Source: a phage. From it: 24,537 nt of DNA. The position numbers and the translations under genes are program-made. Below, one piece after another: positions 135-22,310 of this stretch. Numbering within the stretch: position 1 is the first letter of the stretch; each line of letters starts with the position of its first letter. Under the pieces are notes generated by a model. The model worked only from the letters and a program-made list of their open reading frames with translations. It made no database searches and had not been told where the DNA came from. The DNA is taken from the NCBI GenBank assembly GCA_025881525.1, contig GCA_025881525.1_4849.1. The stretch is one strand, 5' to 3'.

Positions 135-163
135 TTGACGTAGAATCGCAGCTGATGTAGATT
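135..163 (+). promoter_or_regulatory. sigma70-like promoter candidate TTGACG-17bp-TAGATT for early plus-strand block
   Basis: TTGACG 135-140, 17 bp spacer, TAGATT 158-163; about 30 bp upstream of first ATG; overlaps conserved TTGACGTAGAAT motif. Confidence 0.4.
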
Positions 164-4558: not shown

Positions 4559-4590
4559 TTGACCAATCTACACCGAGCGCATAGTATAAT
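4559..4590 (+). promoter_or_regulatory. promoter-like element TTGACC then TAGTAT (17 bp spacer) or TATAAT (20 bp spacer)
   Basis: Read directly; shares gcatagtat...tctacatca with the minus-strand reading of the 9781-9800 region. Confidence 0.3.
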
Positions 4591-4618
4591 CTACATCAGG
4601 CTTACCGGAGATATCACT

Positions 4619-4825
4619 ATGCGCAGCTATGCAGGATTTACACAGGAGGAAAAAGAGCAGGTCTATTCACTGGCGCGGGCTGGCGTGCCTGATGATGTGA
4701 TTTGCCGTAGGTATGACATCGACGAGGATTTCCTGCTGCGCGTTATTGATGATGTTTTCGTTAACCTGCAAGAGAAACGCGGGTACAAGGGTATCTGCTG
4801 CAAGAATGATTTTTTGAGAGGGTGA
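4619..4825 (+). CDS. hypothetical protein (68 aa)
   Basis: ORF track 4442-4825; ATG 4619 with GGAG RBS preferred since upstream part overlaps terminase. Confidence 0.5.
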   Translation: MRSYAGFTQEEKEQVYSLARAGVPDDVICRRYDIDEDFLLRVIDDVFVNLQEKRGYKGICCKNDFLRG

Positions 4826-4829
4826 AAAC

Positions 4830-5027
4830 ATGAAAAGCATAATGAAAAGAATGGTCCGGGCATATGATAAAGAACTGTGCGTATTCAGAGATATGCGTAA
4901 TAACAAGAAAAAGCGCAGAGCTACGGCGCGCCAGTTAGCATCATATTACGATGAGGACGTTGCGATTGAATGCCAGGAGGATGCCGATGAATTTGCTCGT
5001 GATGATATTTACTATATGGTTAACTGA
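4830..5027 (+). CDS. hypothetical basic protein (65 aa)
   Basis: ORF with GAGAGGGTG RBS. Confidence 0.5.
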   Translation: MKSIMKRMVRAYDKELCVFRDMRNNKKKRRATARQLASYYDEDVAIECQEDADEFARDDIYYMVN

Positions 5028-5044
5028 TTTTGAGAGGGTGATGG

Positions 5045-5215
5045 ATGATTGTTATTGAAGACGAAACAAAAACGCCAATGTGCACGATAGCGATTGACTT
5101 TAACTCTGACCCTATGATCACTCAGGGTCATGACACTATTATTATTGACAAACATCAAGCAGCACAGCTAATCGAAGTCCTGCAACGCTGGGTTAATGGT
5201 GAGGAGATTGAGTGA
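5045..5215 (+). CDS. hypothetical protein (56 aa)
   Basis: GAGAGGGTG RBS (13-nt duplicate of the RBS region at 4812-4824); below ORF-track cutoff; TGATG overlap with next gene. Confidence 0.4.
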   Translation: MIVIEDETKTPMCTIAIDFNSDPMITQGHDTIIIDKHQAAQLIEVLQRWVNGEEIE

Positions 5216-5400
5216 TGAGCGTTTATTTTATTCATGCTGAAGTTATGTGGGCTGGTGATACCATCAAGAAGATTTCATGTATGGCCTCTACAAGTAATGC
5301 CATTGAAGCGTTTAACTCATTTATGATTTGCAGTGAGGTTAATGAGTTTAAATCTGGCGGGTATGATGTTGTCATTGATAAACTAGAAAAGGTAGAGTGA
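5215..5400 (+). CDS. hypothetical protein (61 aa)
   Basis: ORF track 5212-5400 (GTG); ATG 5215 with GGTGAGGAG RBS preferred. Confidence 0.5.
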   Translation: MSVYFIHAEVMWAGDTIKKISCMASTSNAIEAFNSFMICSEVNEFKSGGYDVVIDKLEKVE

Positions 5401-5876
5401 TGATTGATTGGGTATCTTTATTTGATTATGATGGAGTGTCTTTGGTGTGGAAGCATGGAAGGGGAGGTGTTTCCGTTGGCAGCATTGCGGGAACGGTTAA
5501 TGCTGGCGGGTACATTCAACTCAAAGCTAACGGAAGATTTTATTATGCCCACAGAATTATATGGGAAATGCATAACGGGCAAATACCTGACGACATGGAG
5601 ATTGATCATATAAACCACAACAAGGCGGACAACAGGATTGAGAATTTGCGTCTTGTTCGACACAAAACTAACACTAAAAACGCGCCTAAATACAAAAATA
5701 ACACCAGCGGCGTTACTGGTGTGAGTTGGTATAAGAGAGATAAAAAATGGCTAGCACAAATAATGGTTGATGGCAATTACATACGTCTTGGTCTTTTTGA
5801 TAATTTCGAAGCAGCAGTCGCCGTAAGAAAGGAAGCAGAACTAAGGTATGGATTTCACAAGAACCACGGCACTTGA
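5400..5876 (+). CDS. HNH homing endonuclease with AP2-type DNA-binding domain
   Basis: HNH motif EIDHINHNKADNRIENLRLV followed by AP2-like GVTGVSWYKRDKKWLAQIMVDGNYIRLGLFDNFEAAVAVRKEAE. Confidence 0.85.
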   Translation: MIDWVSLFDYDGVSLVWKHGRGGVSVGSIAGTVNAGGYIQLKANGRFYYAHRIIWEMHNGQIPDDMEIDHINHNKADNRIENLRLVRHKTNTKNAPKYKNNTSGVTGVSWYKRDKKWLAQIMVDGNYIRLGLFDNFEAAVAVRKEAELRYGFHKNHGT

Positions 5877-5913: not shown

Positions 5914-7329
5914 ATGAGCGACAAAATCGCAGTATTGAATGCGTACATTAAGGATAGAGTGGCGAACAACAACCGGGCGATTCAGCAACAGCGGCTTTGT
6001 GCTGGCGGGAAGAATCTTGACCAGAAGCACGATCGTCTCTGGACGGAGTGCGGGTACCCACAGGAAATCACTGCCGAGATGTTCCGCTATGCCTATGAGC
6101 GACACCCAGCCGCCGCCGCTGGCATTAACCGCATTATTAATAAATGCTGGCAGAAATACCCTGAAGTGGTAGAAGATGGCGAGGATGACAAGAATTCTAC
6201 ACCGTGGGAGTTGTCCATCAACGACATGATGAAGCGTGCTTATCCGTTCATCAAAGAGGCTGACAAGCGCAACGCCATCAACCGCTATTCCGCTGTTATC
6301 CTGCAAATCCGTGACGGCAAGCAATGGAGTGAGCCAGTAGACATCACCAAAACCCGCCGCATTAAAGATAAATCCATTGTTCGATTCATTCCGGTATGGG
6401 AAGAACAACTACGAGTCAGCGCATGGAATAATGACGAAACCAGCGAAGACTACGGAATGCCAGAGATGTACGAATACCAGGAAAGCGCCGTAGAGGATTT
6501 CGATAGCGACGGAAAGCCTGAACGTTCCGTGCAGATTCATCCTGACCGCATCATTATTCTGGCTGAGGGTAGTTTTGATGGCAGCATGTTCAGCGGCATC
6601 CCAATGTTGCGTGCTGGCTACAACAGTCTTATCGACATGGCTAAAGTTTCAGGAAGTTCTGCGGAAGGCTTCCTGAAGAATGCAAGCCGACAACTGGCTG
6701 TTAACTACACGAAGGATAACGTAACGCCAGCAAGCCTCGCACAGTCGATGGGTGTCGATATTGAAGAACTAACCGACATCATGAATGAGAACATCGAAGC
6801 GCTGAACTCAGGTATCGACGCCGCTATGTTCACAATGGGAGCTGATGCAAAAGTTCTCGCTGTGACGCCAGCCGACCCGAAACCAACATGGGAAGTAGCC
6901 GCCAACCAGTTCGCTGCATCAATGGCGCTTCCGTTCACCGTCATCTTTGGTCAGCAAACCGGGCGCCTTGCAAGCGATGAGGACAAGATGCAGGAGGCGA
7001 TGACTGCCAAGCAGCGCCGAGAAACATGGGTTGATTATGTCATCTCAATGTTCGTTGAGCGCATGATTCAGTTCGGCATTGTCGATAAAGCACCGGCAAA
7101 TGGCTACAAGGTTAAGTGGGATGACCTGCTTGCCCCATCTGAACTGGATAAAGCTGAATTGCTGTCTAAGCTCGCCACTGCCAACAAGTCGTTCTTTGAT
7201 GCTGGTCAATCTGCGTTGCTGACCGTCGATGAAGCTCGCGGCATGGTTGGCATGGAGCCGATTGAACTTGACGAGAGTTATCGCGAAGACATGCCACCGG
7301 AAGATGAAAATGAAGATATTCCGGTTTAA
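5914..7329 (+). CDS. portal protein (putative)
   Basis: 471 aa, acidic C-terminus, sits between terminase and Mu F-like gene; GAGGG RBS; assignment by size and synteny. Confidence 0.7.
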
Positions 7330-8260
7330 CGCAAGGCTTCCACAGCCGCGCATATCGCAGAGTCTGACTGACCCGTTAGGAGCTGCAACTCGCCTGTCGA
7401 AGATGGACAAGGTGATAACGCGCAAATACAAACAACTAAGGACTCGTGCGCTTGAGTTGTTTCGATCTATTCCTCATAGTCAGGCTAACGCAGAATCGAG
7501 CGGCCTGTATTTCTACGATTTCAGCAGCGCGCGAGCTGCCACTTTCATGGATGAGCTACAGGCGCTGATTGACGAGATTCTGCTTGAAGGTGATGATTTC
7601 GGTCACGGCAGAATGTGGGCCAATGTGTTCATCGGTGATGCATACCAGGCTGGAACGCAGAAGGCCAACTCAGAGCTGTCAAGTCTTTCTCCGGTTTATG
7701 CTGAGCAAAGACCTATTGCTGCGATACTCTACAGTGAGCCTTACCTGAATCGACTCCAACTGGCTTATACGCAGGGATATTCAGACTGGCGCGGATTGAG
7801 TGATTATTCCCGCCAGCAACTGGCATCTGTCATTATGGAAGGCATTGCCCGTGGTGCTAATCCTCGCGATGTTGAAGCTGACATTGTTAAGCGTTTGGAT
7901 GTGTCACATAGTTACGCGAAACAGATAGCGCAAACCGAAATCACCGGAACGCTCAGGCAGGCTAACAGGCGAGAAGTTATTGAGGCGCGCGAAGAGTTAG
8001 GTATTGAAACGGTGATGCTGTGGCAGTCGGCATTAATGCGCACAACCCGCCAGACGCACGGGTCTAAACATGGACGGTTTTTTACTCCAGAGCAGATTGA
8101 TGATTTCTACTCTCGTGATGGCAATAAATATAATTGTCACTGCGCACAGGTACCAACACTGCTAATGGATGGCAAGCCAGTCATTCTTGAGTCATCGCAG
8201 GAAAGGCTCGATAAGCAGCGCGAGGCGTGGCAGGCGAGCAATAAAAAAGCCACCAAGTAG
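7310..8260 (+). CDS. head morphogenesis protein, Mu F-like / SPP1 gp7 family
   Basis: C-terminal conserved region [15 protein letters not shown] and YNCHCA typical of the family; ORF track start 7229 lies inside portal, ATG 7304/7310 preferred. Confidence 0.8.
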
Positions 8261-8275
8261 GTGGCTTTATATTAT
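8241..8275. terminator. bidirectional hairpin terminator (AGCCACC-aagta-GGTGGCT) with A-run upstream and T-rich tract downstream
   Basis: Read directly; convergent transcription units meet here; Mu F-like gene stop codon lies in the loop. Confidence 0.55.
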
Positions 8276-9762: not shown

Positions 9763-9780
9763 CACCTCACTCATCGTTTG

Positions 9781-9836
9781 ATGTAGATACTATGCACCAC
9801 CACTCAATCTACGTCAACAGTCATTGTGATAGAATT
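9781..9836. promoter_or_regulatory. divergent promoter region: TTGACG -35 (minus, 9812-9817) and extended -10 TGaTAGAAT (plus, 9827-9835), built around the 15-mer AATCTACGTCAACAG
   Basis: Read directly; located between divergently oriented gene blocks. Confidence 0.45.
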
Positions 9837-10830: not shown

Positions 10831-11302
10831 ATACTGGCGACCGCTGGCAATTATTATAATTGCTGCTGCTGGTGCGTTGTGGGTGCGTGGCGAAATTATC
10901 AGCTACGGCGACCAGCGATACGCAGAAGGCAAAGCTCAAGCAATCGCAGACCAGAAGGCCGCAGACGAACAAGAGGAGCAACGACGCAATGCAGAACTGC
11001 AAAAAATTCAGGCCGACGCACAGCAAAGAATTGATGCTGCGCGCAATGATGCTGTTAATGCTGCCGCTAAGTCTGGCAGGTTGCAGCAACAACTCACCAG
11101 TATCCGCAAGCAGCTCGTCGGATATTTCACCTCTGAGTCCATTGGCAACCCAGCCGCAGAAACCGGAGTTTTGCTTGGAGACGTGCTCAGCAAATCTGTC
11201 GAAAGAAATCGACAACTGGCAGATTATGCTGACAGGGCGAGAGAAGCGGGATTAGCGTGTGAGGCGCAGTACAATTCGCTGCGTAATAAAAAAGCCCCGT
11301 AA
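10811..11302 (+). CDS. Rz: i-spanin (Rz-like)
   Basis: N-terminal TM (LAIIIIAAAGALWV) followed by charged coiled-coil periplasmic domain; GGAGG RBS; hosts an embedded lipoprotein ORF. Confidence 0.7.
   Translation: MMSILAKYWRPLAIIIIAAAGALWVRGEIISYGDQRYAEGKAQAIADQKAADEQEEQRRNAELQKIQADAQQRIDAARNDAVNAAAKSGRLQQQLTSIRKQLVGYFTSESIGNPAAETGVLLGDVLSKSVERNRQLADYADRAREAGLACEAQYNSLRNKKAP
11034..11255 (+). CDS. Rz1: o-spanin (Rz1-like), embedded in +1 frame within Rz
   Basis: Lipoprotein signal with lipobox MLRAMMLLMLPLSLAG-C, Pro/Ser-rich mature part; fully nested in i-spanin gene. Confidence 0.6.
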   Translation: MLRAMMLLMLPLSLAGCSNNSPVSASSSSDISPLSPLATQPQKPEFCLETCSANLSKEIDNWQIMLTGREKRD

Positions 11303-11318
11303 TGGGGCTTGTGTTTAA
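11285..11318. terminator. bidirectional hairpin terminator (GCCCC-gtaat-GGGGC) flanked by A-run and T-rich tract
   Basis: Read directly; spanin stop codon in loop; convergent gene blocks meet here. Confidence 0.6.
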
Positions 11319-12492: not shown

Positions 12493-12519
12493 ATTTACTA
12501 CTCCTTTTTCGAAATTTAT

Positions 12520-12575
12520 TATTGACGAATCTACGTCACTTAGTCAATACTGTTGGTGTAGAATGATTCTACCAC
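12520..12575. promoter_or_regulatory. divergent regulatory region with TTGACG, AATCTACGTCA motif, inverted repeat TGACG-N6-CGTCA and 15-bp palindrome GTAGAATgATTCTAC (12558-12572)
   Basis: Read directly; between divergently transcribed blocks. Confidence 0.4.
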
Positions 12576-12596
12576 AACGGAAAAGGTGATGTGGAA

Positions 12597-13262: not shown

Positions 13263-13514
13263 ATGAGCGCACCATATATGCCGATGATGAATGACGAAAT
13301 GCTGCTTGAGTGTCCGTTTTGTGGAGATGCTCATGCGTATATAGATAACGATGGTCCTGGCGCGTTTTATGTCGCTTGCTCGCAGTGTGGGTGTGGTACT
13401 GATGAGTGGCCTCACCAAGCATCAGCAGTGAAGTCATGGAATACTCGCAACGGTCACCTCTACACCGCAGGCGACTTCAATCAGGTAGCAGAGGAACGCG
13501 ATTATGGATTATAA
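13263..13514 (+). CDS. Lar-family restriction alleviation-like zinc-ribbon protein
   Basis: CPFCG ... CSQCGC ... WNTR arrangement typical of Lar family small proteins (from memory). Confidence 0.55.
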   Translation: MSAPYMPMMNDEMLLECPFCGDAHAYIDNDGPGAFYVACSQCGCGTDEWPHQASAVKSWNTRNGHLYTAGDFNQVAEERDYGL

Positions 13515-13992
13515 GTCACAAATCATGCGCGTGATTGTCAATCATCCTGGAGCAACGCGTGCATATATTGAGAAGCATTGCGGCGGAAAGCATTCAAGCA
13601 CCACAACGCACCGTCTGCATGAAATGCTTGCGCTTGGCTTCATTCGTCGCGAGAAGTCAGTGATTCGTGGTGGTAAGTGGCAGTATAAATATTTCATCTC
13701 TGATGATGCGCCTGGAATTGATGATGCGATTAAGTGCCATTTGCTTGATAACGCTGGCGCAGAAGTGAAAGATATTAGCTCAGCCACTGGCATTGATTAT
13801 CGCATCGTGAAAAGCCGCATTCGCATCATGTTTCATAACGGAGATGTGACGCGAAGCTATGATCATCATAAGAAGTTTTGGCGTTATTCATGGAAGGAGA
13901 AGGAAGTAAATGTGAGCAACCTTTTTAATTCACTCCTTCGCAACGTAAGAGGTCAGCATGGGGAAAACCAAACGCAAGAAGCAAGAGTATGA
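13504..13992 (+). CDS. putative DNA-binding protein with two winged-helix-like repeats (162 aa)
   Basis: Two similar segments (around NHPGATRAYIEKH and DNAGAEVKDISSATGIDYRIVKSRI); inferred from pattern only. Confidence 0.5.
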   Translation: MDYKSQIMRVIVNHPGATRAYIEKHCGGKHSSTTTHRLHEMLALGFIRREKSVIRGGKWQYKYFISDDAPGIDDAIKCHLLDNAGAEVKDISSATGIDYRIVKSRIRIMFHNGDVTRSYDHHKKFWRYSWKEKEVNVSNLFNSLLRNVRGQHGENQTQEARV

Positions 13993-15022: not shown

Positions 15023-15145
15023 ATGAATATGATCCCTATCACTTACTTTCTCACGCTATACGCACTCACCAATTCGCCACTGTTTGCACTGGCTACCGCC
15101 TCATGGTGTTATATCTCCCTGTGTTATAATTCGACCACAAACTAA
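15023..15145 (+). CDS. hypothetical small hydrophobic peptide (40 aa)
   Basis: Strong AGGAGGT RBS 6 nt upstream; translation MNMIPITYFLTLYALTNSPLFALATASWCYISLCYNSTTN. Confidence 0.3.
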   Translation: MNMIPITYFLTLYALTNSPLFALATASWCYISLCYNSTTN

Positions 15146-15161: not shown

Positions 15162-17065
<1,904 letters not shown>

Positions 17066-17067
17066 TA

Positions 17068-18138
17068 ATGGAAAAGATTATTTTTACCAAAGACCTGGTA
17101 GCCAACTCCGCAGTGGTGGCTGACCAGTGGAAACATCTCACCATCGACCGCAAGGTGTTCTGCAACGCAGAAGCTGAGCTGGCTAAAACCTATGGTGTTA
17201 ACGCCACTGCACTGGTAACGAAAGATTACTGGCGCGACGTGGACAACGTCACGACCCGTGTTTTCCGCAACGAGGCTGGTCAGGATATGATGGCTGACCT
17301 GATGGGTATCGCGGCAAACATCAATATCGGTAAGACTGTGGCAATCAGCCGTATCGCTTCCGATGCTGGCAAGGTCGTCCGCACCCTGTCTGGTCAGGAG
17401 CCGGAAGATTTGGATAAAACTCGCTACGATTACACTGGCGATGTGATTCCAATCTTCAAGACTGGCTACAGCCGCGAATGGCGCGAACTGCTGGGTATGC
17501 AGTCCGAAGGTTTTGACCCGCTGCTGGACGATCAGGCTAACGTCACCTTTAACCTGCGTTCAGATATGGCACAATACCTGCTGACTGGCGACCAGACTCT
17601 GAACGTGAATGGCGTTTACACTGGCTACGGTATCACCAACCACCCGAACACTGTTCAGGTTAACCTGAATGCTTCCGGCGGTCTGAATATCGACCTGCAA
17701 ACTGCAACGCCAGACGAAATCGTGACCTTCTTCAATCAGGATTTCCAGGCTATTCTGGATGCACAGAACGTATTTGAGCAGGTTACTCTGTGGGTTTCCC
17801 CGGCAGTACGTCGCAGCTTCATGCGTCCGTATTCTAACGCGGCAGGCTTCAAAGGTGGCACTGTTGAGCAGTACATCACGCAGTTCGGCAATGGTCGCAT
17901 CGGCAAGATTGGCACCAACTTCCTGCTGACTGGTAACCATTTCGTTGGCTATGTTCGCAACGACATGTACATCCGTCCGCGTGTTGCTCAGCCAGTTTCC
18001 ACCTATGCGGCAGCCCGTGACAATCCGCACGATAACTTTAACTTTATGGTGTGGTCTGCTTTTGGTCTGCAGATTCGCAAGGATGCCGCTGGAAAAAGCC
18101 GCGTCTTTAATGGCTATGGTAGCCAGGAAGCTAAATAA
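17068..18138 (+). CDS. major capsid protein (putative)
   Basis: 356 aa, position after scaffold/decoration genes, followed by strong terminator; synteny-based. Confidence 0.6.
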   Translation: MEKIIFTKDLVANSAVVADQWKHLTIDRKVFCNAEAELAKTYGVNATALVTKDYWRDVDNVTTRVFRNEAGQDMMADLMGIAANINIGKTVAISRIASDAGKVVRTLSGQEPEDLDKTRYDYTGDVIPIFKTGYSREWRELLGMQSEGFDPLLDDQANVTFNLRSDMAQYLLTGDQTLNVNGVYTGYGITNHPNTVQVNLNASGGLNIDLQTATPDEIVTFFNQDFQAILDAQNVFEQVTLWVSPAVRRSFMRPYSNAAGFKGGTVEQYITQFGNGRIGKIGTNFLLTGNHFVGYVRNDMYIRPRVAQPVSTYAAARDNPHDNFNFMVWSAFGLQIRKDAAGKSRVFNGYGSQEAK

Positions 18139-18170
18139 TAAAAAAGGGGGTTTATCCCCCTTCTTTGTAT
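18136..18170. terminator. bidirectional hairpin terminator (AAGGGGG-tttat-CCCCCTT) flanked by A-run and T-tract
   Basis: Read directly; minus-strand HNH gene stop codon lies in the loop. Confidence 0.65.
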
Positions 18171-18958
18171 CTAATTTCACCGTAAACCATGTACTGTAAC
18201 ATGTAACAAAACTCCCATTCCGTCATATCTGTCCGTAGCCACTTCCTGTTCTTCTTGTAATTGTACTCCGCCGGCTCCGCTTTTAAATTGTGAAGAGCAT
18301 TAACCAGTTCTGGATATACGAGGTTATTCTTAACAAACCAGTTGACAGATAAAATATGGTCAATATGCCAATTATTGCGGTCATCAAAACTCATCCATGG
18401 AAGCATGGTTGATTTTATATGCTTAATGAAATCATCCTTTGAGTACCCGAGAACATCATCTACCGTTCTATCAAGCGCAATGTCAGATACTCTCATATCA
18501 AGCCGCTCAAGCATTTTTCTTAGGAACACGTGGTGTGGGTGCTTCTTTTGCCATTGCCTGACATTATCCAGAGCCTTTTTATTGCCTTTCTCTGAGTAGT
18601 ACCATCTGCGATAAGCTTCCCTTTTCTTTTGTAAAAACTCCTCCTTTTTCTCTGGATTCTCGTTAAGCCTTTGCATCTTCCTTTTGTTGTACTCCTGTTG
18701 TGATTGTTTTCTTTTCTTTTTGTACTCGCTGTTATCCTTGTTTTTCTGCCACTCCTTTTTTCTGTACTCACTTTCCTTGCGTTTGCGCTCCTCTGTTGTT
18801 CTCTGCTTCCTTGTTCTTTCGTATACGCAATGCTTGCACCCACATGATGCCGTAAAAAACACAGTTCCACCACATACAGAGCATGGGACCCATTCACATA
18901 TAAATTGCTTCAATCCAGCAACTCTTGCTTCTCGCGCGGCTTCTTTTCTTGTTTTCAT
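18152..18958 (-). CDS. HNH homing endonuclease with N-terminal Cys cluster and long Lys/Arg/Glu-rich linker
   Basis: C-terminal NWHIDHILSVNWF...N motif; N-terminal CEWVPCSVCGG...CGCKHC; AT-rich coding region; opposite strand to flanking structural genes; ATG 18958 preferred over GTG 18967. Confidence 0.8.
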   Translation of the reverse strand: MKTRKEAAREARVAGLKQFICEWVPCSVCGGTVFFTASCGCKHCVYERTRKQRTTEERKRKESEYRKKEWQKNKDNSEYKKKRKQSQQEYNKRKMQRLNENPEKKEEFLQKKREAYRRWYYSEKGNKKALDNVRQWQKKHPHHVFLRKMLERLDMRVSDIALDRTVDDVLGYSKDDFIKHIKSTMLPWMSFDDRNNWHIDHILSVNWFVKNNLVYPELVNALHNLKAEPAEYNYKKNRKWLRTDMTEWEFCYMLQYMVYGEIRYKEGG

Positions 18959-19045
18959 AAAAGTCACTCCTAATTTGGTTCTATATTACTACAGGTGTAA
19001 TGAGTGTGCTACAATTGACCTGCATTAACTCATGAGGATATTTAA

Positions 19046-19243
19046 ATGGCTAAATACGAAGTCATCGCACGCGGAATCTTTGTTAAAGAGAAAGGCAAGA
19101 TTCGTGAATTGCAGCTTGGCGAGGTGATTACCGAACCAGATGAGCATCTGCTGCCAAAACTGCGCGTTATGCCAGAACTGGAAAAGTCTTTCGAAGTCGC
19201 AACCCCGCAAGAAAAGACGACAAAGAGAAAGAAAGCAGAGTAA
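19046..19243 (+). CDS. hypothetical protein (65 aa)
   Basis: GAGGA RBS; immediately followed by terminator. Confidence 0.5.
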   Translation: MAKYEVIARGIFVKEKGKIRELQLGEVITEPDEHLLPKLRVMPELEKSFEVATPQEKTTKRKKAE

Positions 19244-20104: not shown

Positions 20105-20135
20105 AAAGAAAAGCCCCGTGAAGGGGCTTTTTATT
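20105..20135. terminator. bidirectional hairpin terminator (AGCCCC-gtgaa-GGGGCT) flanked by A-run and T-run
   Basis: Read directly; convergent genes on both sides. Confidence 0.65.
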
Positions 20136-20673: not shown

Positions 20674-20846
20674 CACTTCATCTTAATCATATGTTGTTTT
20701 GCAACCTTCAGGCATTCTTCAAAAATGCCACCCTTCTTTGCGCTCTGGTGACGCTTGTAATACTTAATTGCCGCATCAATTGCCATCTGGTCGATATCTG
20801 GCAGCTTGGCGCGCAGCTGTTTTTCGATAAATTGTTCAGCGTTCAT
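20673..20846 (-). CDS. hypothetical small protein (57 aa)
   Basis: Fills gap in minus operon; ATGA overlap with downstream DnaN-like gene; below ORF-track cutoff. Confidence 0.35.
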   Translation of the reverse strand: MNAEQFIEKQLRAKLPDIDQMAIDAAIKYYKRHQSAKKGGIFEECLKVAKQHMIKMK

Positions 20847-21090
20847 GATTTATCTTCACCCATCCTTTGCTTGCACCGTGCGATAAGATAAGACCTTTCT
20901 TGCGCAACGCCTGAAGGCGACGATCAAGGACTCGAAATCCCTCATGTGGTTTTGTTGATAACTTTCTGCATACAGAATGAATACCGTTACCACCAATGCC
21001 GCCATAAAAGTGGATCTCAGCGAATGTTTTTGGCTTGTTAAAATCCAACGCATTCATAATCATTGCGTCGAGTTCTTCATACTTACTCAT
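20836..21090 (-). CDS. putative winged-helix DNA-binding protein (84 aa)
   Basis: C-terminal VLDRRLQALRKKGLI resembles winged-helix recognition region; pattern-based. Confidence 0.45.
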   Translation of the reverse strand: MSKYEELDAMIMNALDFNKPKTFAEIHFYGGIGGNGIHSVCRKLSTKPHEGFRVLDRRLQALRKKGLILSHGASKGWVKINHER

Positions 21091-21899
21091 TTCATCTTCT
21101 CCAGAATTGCCATAACTTCGTGAATGTCAGCAACAGGAATCTGAATAAATTCCTCATCCTCTGCCACCACATGACCAGCAGGTAGAATTACATGGTCGGC
21201 TGGCTTCAATAACTCAATCAGGCGGTCTACTGGCTTAATCTTTTTCGACTTCAGCACTTTGGCTGTGACCTTGTCCTTGCCTTGCGCTTTGGCTTCTTCG
21301 ACTGCCTCGTCGATAACTTTAACCGCATCATCGCCATGTTCACGCGTTACTGCTACGGCATTTGCATAGCTGATTTGTCCTGCACTGATGCGCGCTTTTA
21401 CTTCTGCTGGCACATCACCCAGCGACAGGTGCATTTGCACGTCAGATACTGAGCGGCCTACCTTCTTGGCGATTTCTTCATTTGTCCAGCCAAATCCTTT
21501 CAATCGCGTGTAAGCCTTTGCACGCTCAAACGGGTCAAGCTGCTTGCCCTGACTGGATGACACCATGAAGGCGATTTTGTCCGCCTCGTCGCCAGTGAAA
21601 TCCTTGCACTCAATGCGAACGATTGGTGCGCCGCGTTCAATGGCTCGTAGTGCACCAAGATAGCGATGCTGACCATCAAGAATGCGGATTCCTTTGTCGT
21701 CAGGGATAACTGTTAATGCTGGCAATGGCTGACCTGATTCCCAGCACTGAGCGAAATATTCAACGTGTTGCTCATCTGCTTCACGGATGTTATATCCCGG
21801 CTCCAGATAGATTCGCTCCACTGGCACGAGATAGGTTTTGTTAACAGCAATACCGTTGCGCGTTTCTTTGTCTGAATAGATTTTGCTTAGTGTTTTCAT
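21087..21899 (-). CDS. ParB-like nuclease-domain protein (ParB/Srx fold with DGQHR motif) plus HTH region
   Basis: IRILDGQHRYLGAL motif; downstream segment VQMHLSLGDVPAEVKARISAGQISYANAVAV resembles ParB HTH region. Confidence 0.75.
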   Translation of the reverse strand: MKTLSKIYSDKETRNGIAVNKTYLVPVERIYLEPGYNIREADEQHVEYFAQCWESGQPLPALTVIPDDKGIRILDGQHRYLGALRAIERGAPIVRIECKDFTGDEADKIAFMVSSSQGKQLDPFERAKAYTRLKGFGWTNEEIAKKVGRSVSDVQMHLSLGDVPAEVKARISAGQISYANAVAVTREHGDDAVKVIDEAVEEAKAQGKDKVTAKVLKSKKIKPVDRLIELLKPADHVILPAGHVVAEDEEFIQIPVADIHEVMAILEKMK

Positions 21900-22222: not shown

Positions 22223-22249
22223 ATCACTCACCTCTAACATTTATTGTTG

Positions 22250-22310
22250 TTTCTACGTCACTAACTATAAACACGCCATCAATCTACGTCAACAGGAATA
22301 TGCTAAAATC
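22250..22310. promoter_or_regulatory. divergent promoter region with two direct copies of TCTACGTCA (22252-22260, 22283-22291); minus: TTGACG-17-TATAGT; plus: extended -10 TGcTAAAAT (22301-22309)
   Basis: Read directly; 15-mer AATCTACGTCAACAG identical to the copy at 9806-9820. Confidence 0.45.

Follow-up and report, generated by a model that had tools for sequence, protein, structure and literature searches.

An asymmetric 11-bp motif shared by the promoters of a Skatevirus-like phage is a probable operator of a phage regulon

Several well-studied systems place one short sequence at many promoters, or build their regulatory regions around a shared site. In phage P1, the operators of the C1 protein are scattered in many asymmetric copies over operon promoters, in either orientation and sometimes in pairs, and are served by one phage protein. 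In the KorB/OB system of RK2, as well as with VirB and Noc, a helix-turn-helix (HTH) regulator of the ParB family acts at about a dozen operators near most operon promoters, including its own. The MotA boxes of phage T4 are asymmetric elements of ~9 bp at −30, ~12 bp 5' of a good and often extended −10, where they take the place of the −35. At the A2b/A3 promoters of phage phi29, the p4 site lies between back-to-back promoters, so that p4 represses the −35-dependent early one and activates the −35-less late one. Finally, the PeSL cassettes of T4-type phages, which join a conserved early promoter to a stem-loop, flank variable small genes and mark mosaic boundaries. Here we describe an 11-bp motif, AWTCTACRYCA, that recurs at the promoters of a 24,537-nucleotide stretch of phage DNA (contig GCA_025881525.1_4849.1 of GenBank assembly GCA_025881525.1), referred to below as the window, and that we read as a putative operator.

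The motif resembles each of these systems in part and fits none of them fully. It shares with the P1 C1 operators the scattered, asymmetric and sometimes paired copies, but the latter are 17 bp long and unrelated in sequence; moreover, P1 is temperate and C1 maintains its lysogeny, whereas the present phage group is reported to be lytic, and no C1 homologue is annotated in its relatives, no dedicated search for one having been made. As in control of the KorB type, a gene for a ParB/KorB-like protein is present in the window and the promoter of its operon carries two copies of the motif; in contrast, OB, parS, NBS and virS are palindromes of 13–16 bp, whereas the motif is asymmetric and its pairing variable. 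The geometry of T4 MotA boxes is found at two rightward promoters (regions R2 and R4, Table 1), although the majority of copies lie elsewhere than −30, no relation in sequence to TTTGCTTTA is seen, and no homologue of MotA or AsiA was detected among the proteins scanned. Back-to-back promoters around one site are also seen in phi29, where they are limited to a single region and the p4 dimer binds inverted repeats together with p6, whereas here the module is repeated and its sites are asymmetric. Conserved cassettes that precede variable genes recall those of the PeSL type; unlike PeSL cassettes, however, which are associated with recombination, the regulatory regions of the window share an 11-bp motif that looks like a protein site, with no conserved stem-loop.

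The window covers roughly half the genome of a virulent Skatevirus-like siphophage, and its closest records are the Escherichia phages swi2 and C1, with ~90% identity across 75% of its length. The consensus was derived from 17 paralogous copies, ten in the window and seven in the rest of the swi2 genome. Their flanks show no conservation on either side, and the RY positions read GT, AT or AC, never GC. The TCTACRYC core is found 13 times in the window, and ten of these occurrences are located in five non-coding regions (R1 to R5), two per region. When the window was scanned with a position weight matrix, ten sites scored at least 14.7 bits, all of them non-coding (P = 4e-10; the non-coding share of the window is 11.4%, or 2.8 kb), and the next best site reached 12.3 bits. 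Confinement of the motif to non-coding DNA, claimed in a first-pass annotation made from the sequence alone, is thereby supported, as strong sites are not spread equally into genes. For the word WWTCTACRYC, ten copies in the 2.8 kb of non-coding DNA compare with 0.11–0.13 expected, a ~75-fold excess over composition; the lone copy in coding DNA lies at 6194–6205.

The first-pass annotation had recognized the motif as a 15-mer, AATCTACGTCAACAG, with a third, reverse-complementary copy also taken as identical. The 15-mer is exact at 9806–9820 and 22281–22295, but its reverse complement, at 132–146, has one mismatch (ATTCTACGTCAACAG). The related copies listed there (R1b, R2a, R3a, R4a, R5a and R5b) were recovered, two of them with coordinates shifted by 1–2 bases, but that list was incomplete: it lacked R3b (ATTCTACACCA, reverse strand) and a degenerate copy at 12566–12576, which forms a near-palindrome with R3b. 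The two sites of a pair are arranged as direct, inverted or everted repeats, with centre-to-centre distances of 17–31 bp. An RNA-level element was considered and rejected, since the window has zero Rfam matches at the gathering score and the orientation of the motif with respect to transcription is not constant.

All three large divergent junctions of the window, as well as two unidirectional promoter gaps, carry the motif. The broader statement that it marks every inter-operon region is correct for nearly all of them, with two exceptions: the divergent junction 18968–19046, made by an apparent homing-endonuclease insertion, and the extended −10 promoter of the head genes at 15121–15129, neither of which has a copy. 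A similar distribution is seen in swi2 (RefSeq annotation), where all 17 copies of WWTCTACRYC are intergenic, although only 9.9% of the genome is (P ~ 1e-17). These copies cover all seven major divergent junctions and three unidirectional gaps, which precede the recombination genes, the terminase operon and the major tail gene. Among divergent junctions, the motif is missing from two alone, both of them homing-endonuclease insertions.

The motif is also found in more distant relatives. In Klebsiella phage VLCpiS13b, whose proteins are 35–86% identical to those of the window, an annotation-based 8-mer count blind to the motif placed AATCTACG, TCTACGTC and CTACGTCA at the top of the words enriched in intergenic DNA. 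In Roufvirus pYD38-A the motif is again the top intergenic 8-mer, with 11 of 16 core matches in the 9.3% of DNA that is intergenic (P = 1e-8), and in a third clade, known from IMG/VR contigs, it is present at promoter-like places. Phages whose hosts are Escherichia, Salmonella, Klebsiella and Vibrio (the last as labelled) all carry it without change. A scan of IMG/VR for paired copies returned mostly unrelated, probably chance matches. A second 8-mer, TTCTCCGA/TCGGAGAA, is also enriched intergenically in VLCpiS13b (locus L158), with five copies versus one in coding DNA.

Region R4 was aligned twice, with 57 distinct sequences selected through the motif and then with 44 distinct sequences anchored on the 5' untranslated region (5'UTR), outside the motif. 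The conserved blocks comprise the 5'UTR of the leftward gene with its ribosome-binding site, copy A, ACTATA (the leftward −10), TCAATCTACGTCAACA (copy B together with the −35) and TATGnTAAAAT (the extended −10). The variable parts are the 9-nt remainder of the spacer, the 2–3 nt from copy A to the −10 and the 3–4 nt that follow GTCAACA; a 1-nt insertion or deletion between copy A and the −10 alters the distance between the two copies. Within the copies, most changes in the 44-sequence set turn the G of the R position into A, the degeneracy also seen among the paralogues. The motif is under purifying selection beyond the σ70 hexamers, which bears out the conservation beyond them noted in the first-pass annotation: its non-hexamer positions are invariant in relatives, while the promoter spacers vary. 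When 34 sequences of R2 were aligned from the start of the endolysin gene, this pattern reappeared in weaker form, the whole region being well conserved. In one relative (L019) the leftward module of R2 is replaced, with the second copy at the same place in flipped orientation. In relatives, the first leftward gene at both R2 and R4 is swapped for many unrelated genes, whereas the cassette of promoter, 5'UTR and ribosome-binding site stays intact as far as the start codon. Mosaic boundaries are located at these regulatory cassettes, at 22241–22263 and 9775–9790 (loci L005–L037 and L161–L235).

The promoters discussed here are matches to the σ70 consensus, and positions relative to them assume +1 at 7 nt past the −10. 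Six −35/−10 matches (9–10 of 12, with hexamers 16–18 bp apart) fall in the motif regions and are oriented towards the expected genes, and the promoter scan recovered among them the previously noted pairs of TTGACG with TAGATT, CATAGT or TATAGT 17 bp away. In five of the six, one copy of the motif is centred between −29 and −24 and another between −12 and +3; the sixth, the leftward promoter of R3, has copies at −22 and ~−48. Copies are found in either orientation relative to the promoters, and two arrangements recur: either the motif complement, TTGACGTAGAWT, overlaps the −35, or TTGACS is directly followed by AATCTACRYC, in which case the motif occupies the start of the spacer.

Regions R2 and R4 form back-to-back modules, each with a leftward promoter that has a good −35 and a rightward promoter that has an extended −10 only; in a consensus scan, neither extended −10 had a −35 match 16–18 bp upstream. 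Copies R2b and R4b, in the same orientation, occupy the −31/−30 region of these rightward promoters of the lysis and structural genes, ~12–13 bp 5' of the extended −10s, also in agreement with the earlier description. The tail and major-tail promoters of swi2 are back-to-back as well, with TTGACA-17-TAGATT, of which the motif forms the −10, versus TGaTATAAT on the opposite strand. In R3 (12518–12551) the −35 of each promoter sits on the −10 of the other, and RNA polymerase could presumably occupy only one of them at a time.

Table 1. Motif copies, predicted promoters and genes of candidate reader proteins in the window
Feature	Coordinates	Strand	Sequence	Remarks
R1a	136..146	-	ATTCTACGTCA	Overlaps −35 TTGACG (135–140) of rightward promoter; centre ~−29
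R1b	153..163	-	AATCTACATCA	Complement gives −10 TAGATT (158–163); centre ~−12
R5a	4565..4575	+	AATCTACACCG	Spacer, immediately 3' of −35 TTGACC; centre ~−24
R5b	4588..4598	+	AATCTACATCA	Immediately 3' of −10 TAGTAT; centre ~−1
R2a	9779..9789	-	TATCTACATCA	Start site of leftward promoter; centre ~−2
R2b	9806..9816	+	AATCTACGTCA	−35 region common to back-to-back promoters; −29 leftward, −31 rightward
R3a	12528..12538	+	AATCTACGTCA	Inside spacers of both overlapping divergent promoters (−25, −22)
R3b	12554..12564	-	ATTCTACACCA	+2 of rightward promoter
R4a	22250..22260	+	TTTCTACGTCA	~+3 of leftward promoter
R4b	22281..22291	+	AATCTACGTCA	Shared −35 region; −29 leftward, −30 rightward
R1 right promoter	135..163	+	TTGACG-17-TAGATT	Small-gene operon 194–2356
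R5 promoter	4559..4587	+	TTGACC-17-TAGTAT	Predicted to drive 4619–5876
R2 left promoter	9789..9817	-	TTGACG-17-CATAGT	Small leftward genes 9774–8402
R2 right extended −10	9827..9835	+	TGaTAGAAT	Lysis cassette; without −35; 7/9 columns invariant in relatives
R3 divergent promoters	12518..12551	both	Rightward TTGACG-18-AATACT, leftward TTGACT-18-AATAAT	Fully overlapping
R4 left promoter	22264..22292	-	TTGACG-17-TATAGT	Operon 22240–20137, including ParB-like gene
R4 right extended −10	22301..22309	+	TGcTAAAAT	Structural genes; kept as TGnTAAAAT in relatives
ParB/Spo0J/KorB-like HTH protein	21087..21899	-		Candidate reader; encoded in R4 leftward operon
MarR-like winged-helix protein	13504..13992	+		phrog_1687; disfavoured candidate
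68-aa protein	4619..4825	+		Weak alternative candidate; never deleted in mutant set

AWTCTACRYCA is probably an operator at which one regulator, acting in trans and specific for this sequence, represses the −35-dependent promoters, and this regulator is most probably encoded by the phage; judged from the sequences, its regulon would comprise ~17–19 sites in ~10 promoter regions genome-wide. A site for a separate DNA-binding protein, rather than a class of promoters, is indicated by the invariant TCTAC and CA, which lie largely outside the bases read by σ70, as well as by the positions of the copies (in the spacer, at the start site, at the −35, in both orientations) and by the fact that the paralogues share the 11-mer only. 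Repression is suggested since two sites bracketing the core promoter represent a classical repression geometry. As orientation and spacing vary, the sites would be bound independently, by a monomer or as half-sites, and not by a fixed dimer on a palindrome. The first-pass annotation had offered a regulator's operator or a strong early promoter class; the former is favoured, and the link to early genes does not hold, as the motif also precedes lysis, tail, structural and replication operons.

When bound, such a regulator would keep RNA polymerase from the −35-dependent promoters and thereby silence them or reduce their output. Repression of the leftward promoter of R4 would make the operon of the ParB-like protein autoregulated, if that protein is the reader. 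At R2 and R4, occupancy could free the extended −10 promoter from its divergent competitor and perhaps also activate it, as a MotA box at −30 or phi29 p4 would, and in this way produce a switch from early to late transcription.

The gene at 21087–21899 was one of three previously proposed to encode the binder, and it stays attractive. Its product matches the Pfam families HTH_ParB (44.0 bits, cut-off 22.6) and KorB (26.3 bits, cut-off 22.3) and, in PDB, Spo0J (1vz0, E = 5e-13) and KorB (8qa8, E = 4e-3), with Noc structures also matching. It is the best conserved non-structural protein, exceeding the capsid and portal proteins in conservation across the family, with identities of 98–99%, 80–81% and 68–72% in the three motif-bearing clades. 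The HTH segment, GWTNEEIAKKVGRSVSDVQMHLSL, is identical in all three clades and differs in prophage-like homologues that are 44–47% identical; the contigs that carry these homologues lack the motif, and no analogous multi-copy motif is present within 14–20 kb of the gene. Two perfect 16-bp palindromes, at 16331–16346 (GTTGACAGCTGTCAAC) and 17654–17669 (TTCAGGTTAACCTGAA), are found within the head genes, but were rejected as rival parS sites, being kept in close relatives only and not in the Roufvirus clade. Thus no conserved palindrome competes as the site of the ParB-like protein, which was counted in favour of this protein as the reader of the motif. A role for it as an activator of thymine dioxygenase was also rejected, as no such enzyme is annotated in the relatives listed; the dioxygenase gene itself was not searched for. 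On the sequence comparisons above, the ParB-like protein is a tentative first candidate for the reader, and the other proteins of the phage hold, taken together, a somewhat better chance; what probability remains goes to there being no dedicated reader or to a host factor. The fuller proposal, that the ParB/KorB-like protein reads the asymmetric 11-mer as a global regulator in the style of KorB, with ~18 sites at every major promoter, and flips the back-to-back modules from −35-dependent early to extended −10 late transcription, is more doubtful.

The other two proposed binders are now disfavoured. The MarR-like protein is largely deleted in the viable genome-reduced phage seszw_300S and is thus dispensable. 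Of the records with 99% or more identity to Seszw_1, 72 contain the capsid gene and 70 the ParB-like gene, but only 32 the MarR-like gene. In Roufvirus relatives the MarR-like protein is 35–38% identical and its predicted recognition helix differs, whereas the motif is identical; the palindrome and co-conserved reader that characterize operators of the MarR type are likewise not found, as the site is asymmetric. The open reading frame (ORF) at 20836–21090 is present only in swi2 among the genomes compared, and for this reason cannot be the reader of a motif found throughout the family. A 68-residue protein is a further, weaker candidate: its single-sequence AlphaFold2 (AF2) model consists of three helices, with a predicted local distance difference test (pLDDT) score of 76, and the best PDB matches in a structure search were HTH domains, none of them significant (E of at least 0.25). 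By residue count the protein is net acidic, and it is 50–53% conserved. Deletions mapped from the GenBank records of the ~60 genome-reduced seszw derivatives (MZ375295–MZ375354, locus L160) show that the MarR-like and RusA genes can be lost, whereas the genes of the 68-residue and ParB-like proteins are always kept.

A number of observations weigh against this interpretation, either against the operator itself or against the ParB-like protein as its reader. In total, σ70 consensus matches are no more numerous in the window than in shuffled sequence, and the literature search yielded no start-site mapping, binding or expression data for any member of this phage group. The motif itself holds −35-like (TGACG) and −10-like (TAGAWT) words, and ordinary promoter constraint could account for part of the conservation seen at three or four of the copies. 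The variable distance of the motif from the tail promoters of swi2 weakens the argument for a switch at R2 and R4, and the motif-free head promoter shows that the motif is no general requirement for late expression. The mapped seszw mutant keeps all intergenic sites, which is uninformative on the motif, as regulatory elements were not among the targets of that study. ParB-family proteins normally bind palindromes of 13–16 bp as dimers, and the motif, with its asymmetric consensus and variable pairing, is not a site of the palindromic ParB/KorB type. The N-terminal domain of the ParB-like protein also departs from Spo0J, as it reads DGQHRY and SSSQG where Spo0J has GERRY and ENLQR, its CTP boxes being kept only in part, and the protein remains below all NCBIfam cut-offs (39 bits for TIGR00180, versus 58). 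The DGQHR sequence is also found in ParB relatives of the DndB type.

Among the alternatives, a site for an activator of the MotA type is unlikely. The motif would then primarily replace a missing −35 and recruit RNA polymerase to middle and late genes through a phage activator. The rightward promoters of R2 and R4 have just this layout, with identically oriented copies upstream of TGnTAnAAT, and the relatives from Klebsiella and Roufvirus have it too; R1, on its leftward side facing the replication genes, may be a third case. Yet these are only two, or perhaps three, of the ten copies in the window, the others being found in core promoter elements or downstream of them, in both orientations, and at the swi2 tail promoters the copies are at ~−40 and ~−49 by our own count. 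The absence of a copy at the head promoter was also counted against such a role, and no protein of the MotA or AsiA families was detected with Pfam among ~30 proteins of the window and ten of relatives, or with PHROGs among 20, the ORFs having been scanned in part.

Quite unlikely, too, is an intrinsic promoter module, that is, composite −35- and −10-like words read by the host RNA polymerase alone, with strong promoters spread by duplication. Such words do exist: TTGACGTAGAWT serves as the −35 of three promoters and TGATGTAGATT as the −10 of R1 and of two swi2 promoters, and the three copies of the 15-mer resemble recent paralogues. However, several copies lie in the spacer or past the −10, in either orientation, where σ70 reads no sequence, and the forward motif is not a −10, since TACRYC lacks the essential T at −7. 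The invariant TCTAC and CA are outside the hexamers, and nothing past the 11-mer is shared by the paralogues, both of which are better explained by an operator.

The replacement of the first leftward gene at R2 and R4 by many unrelated genes, with the cassette intact to the start codon, would also be expected if these cassettes were recombination linkers or mobile regulatory units that persist by mediating the exchange of adjoining variable genes. This explanation is improbable for the motif as such, as 11 bp is too short for homologous exchange, the conservation of the cassettes is patchy, with the motif and hexamers fixed and the spacer variable, and the identical 11-mer recurs in otherwise unrelated cassettes; it can, nevertheless, coexist with an operator. 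Least probable of all is the site of a conserved host transcription factor exploited by the phage, which is conceivable as the hosts of motif-bearing phages are all Gammaproteobacteria and otherwise has no direct support, since the consensus sites of CRP, FNR, Fur, LexA, IHF, MetJ, NarL and DnaA do not match, the nearest of them, the DnaA box, agrees at 6/9 positions with a critical C to T change, and the motif stays the same across the host genera named above. A σ-dependent pause element and sites for DnaA, IHF, LexA, MetJ and NarL were rejected on comparison of the sequence with their consensus.

Several other features of the window accompany the motif. The 271-residue ORF at 18152–18967 (reverse strand), adjacent to the motif-free divergent junction, has zinc-finger and HNH-like motifs and no counterpart in seven complete relatives or in contig segments of the third clade; from its sequence and position, a homing endonuclease seems to have inserted here, between the capsid gene and its neighbour. 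The other motif-free place, TGtTATAAT at 15121–15129, is located in the 3' end of a 40-codon hydrophobic ORF with a strong ribosome-binding site (15023–15145); it is preceded by a near-duplicate, TGTTATAT, lies just upstream of the head-gene operon, and is likely a late promoter that does without the motif. Five copies of (C)CCCACG within 110 bp (10–16, 56–62 in reverse, 74–80, 86–92 and 105–111) are kept in phage C1. They lie in the large stretch of non-coding DNA opposite the helicase/primase genes of relatives, and this iteron-looking array may serve as an origin of replication or bind an initiator. At the convergent junctions 8246–8268, 11292–11310, 18140–18166 and 20109–20131, GC-rich hairpins flanked by T runs, on one strand or on both, look like bidirectional intrinsic terminators that bound the transcription units.

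The gene order of the window starts with small early-type genes, the terminase, further small genes, portal and head morphogenesis genes, a leftward block of small genes and the lysis cassette. A second leftward block follows, then Lar, MarR-like and other small genes and the head genes; the last part consists of a leftward block with the RusA and ParB-like genes and of head-tail genes. The International Committee on Taxonomy of Viruses (ICTV) divides the Skatevirus-like group into Swiduovirus, Deseoctovirus and Skatevirus, whereas the BASEL paper treats the whole group as Skatevirus, with Roufvirus as its root; Salmonella Vi phage E1 is also a relative. A literature search with the exact motif string gave only unrelated primer-type matches, and neither a promoter or motif analysis of this phage group nor a description of the motif, in our reading a putative phage regulon operator, was found in the searchable literature, whose coverage was incomplete.

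Skatevirus/Roufvirus-like phages are isolated very often, with more than 150 GenBank genomes from Escherichia, Salmonella, Shigella and Klebsiella, and are used as candidates for therapy and biocontrol and as chassis for genome reduction, although no transcription programme for them has been described in the searchable literature. A single conserved operator would define their promoter set, and would predict one master regulator as well as the bases that matter for its binding. The conserved cassettes of promoter and 5'UTR may also offer ready-made, well-delimited parts for the engineering of these phages. If the ParB-like protein is indeed the reader, the theme known from KorB and VirB would extend to lytic phages and to asymmetric sites, and a ParB-family protein acting on a non-palindromic site would run the temporal programme of a lytic phage.

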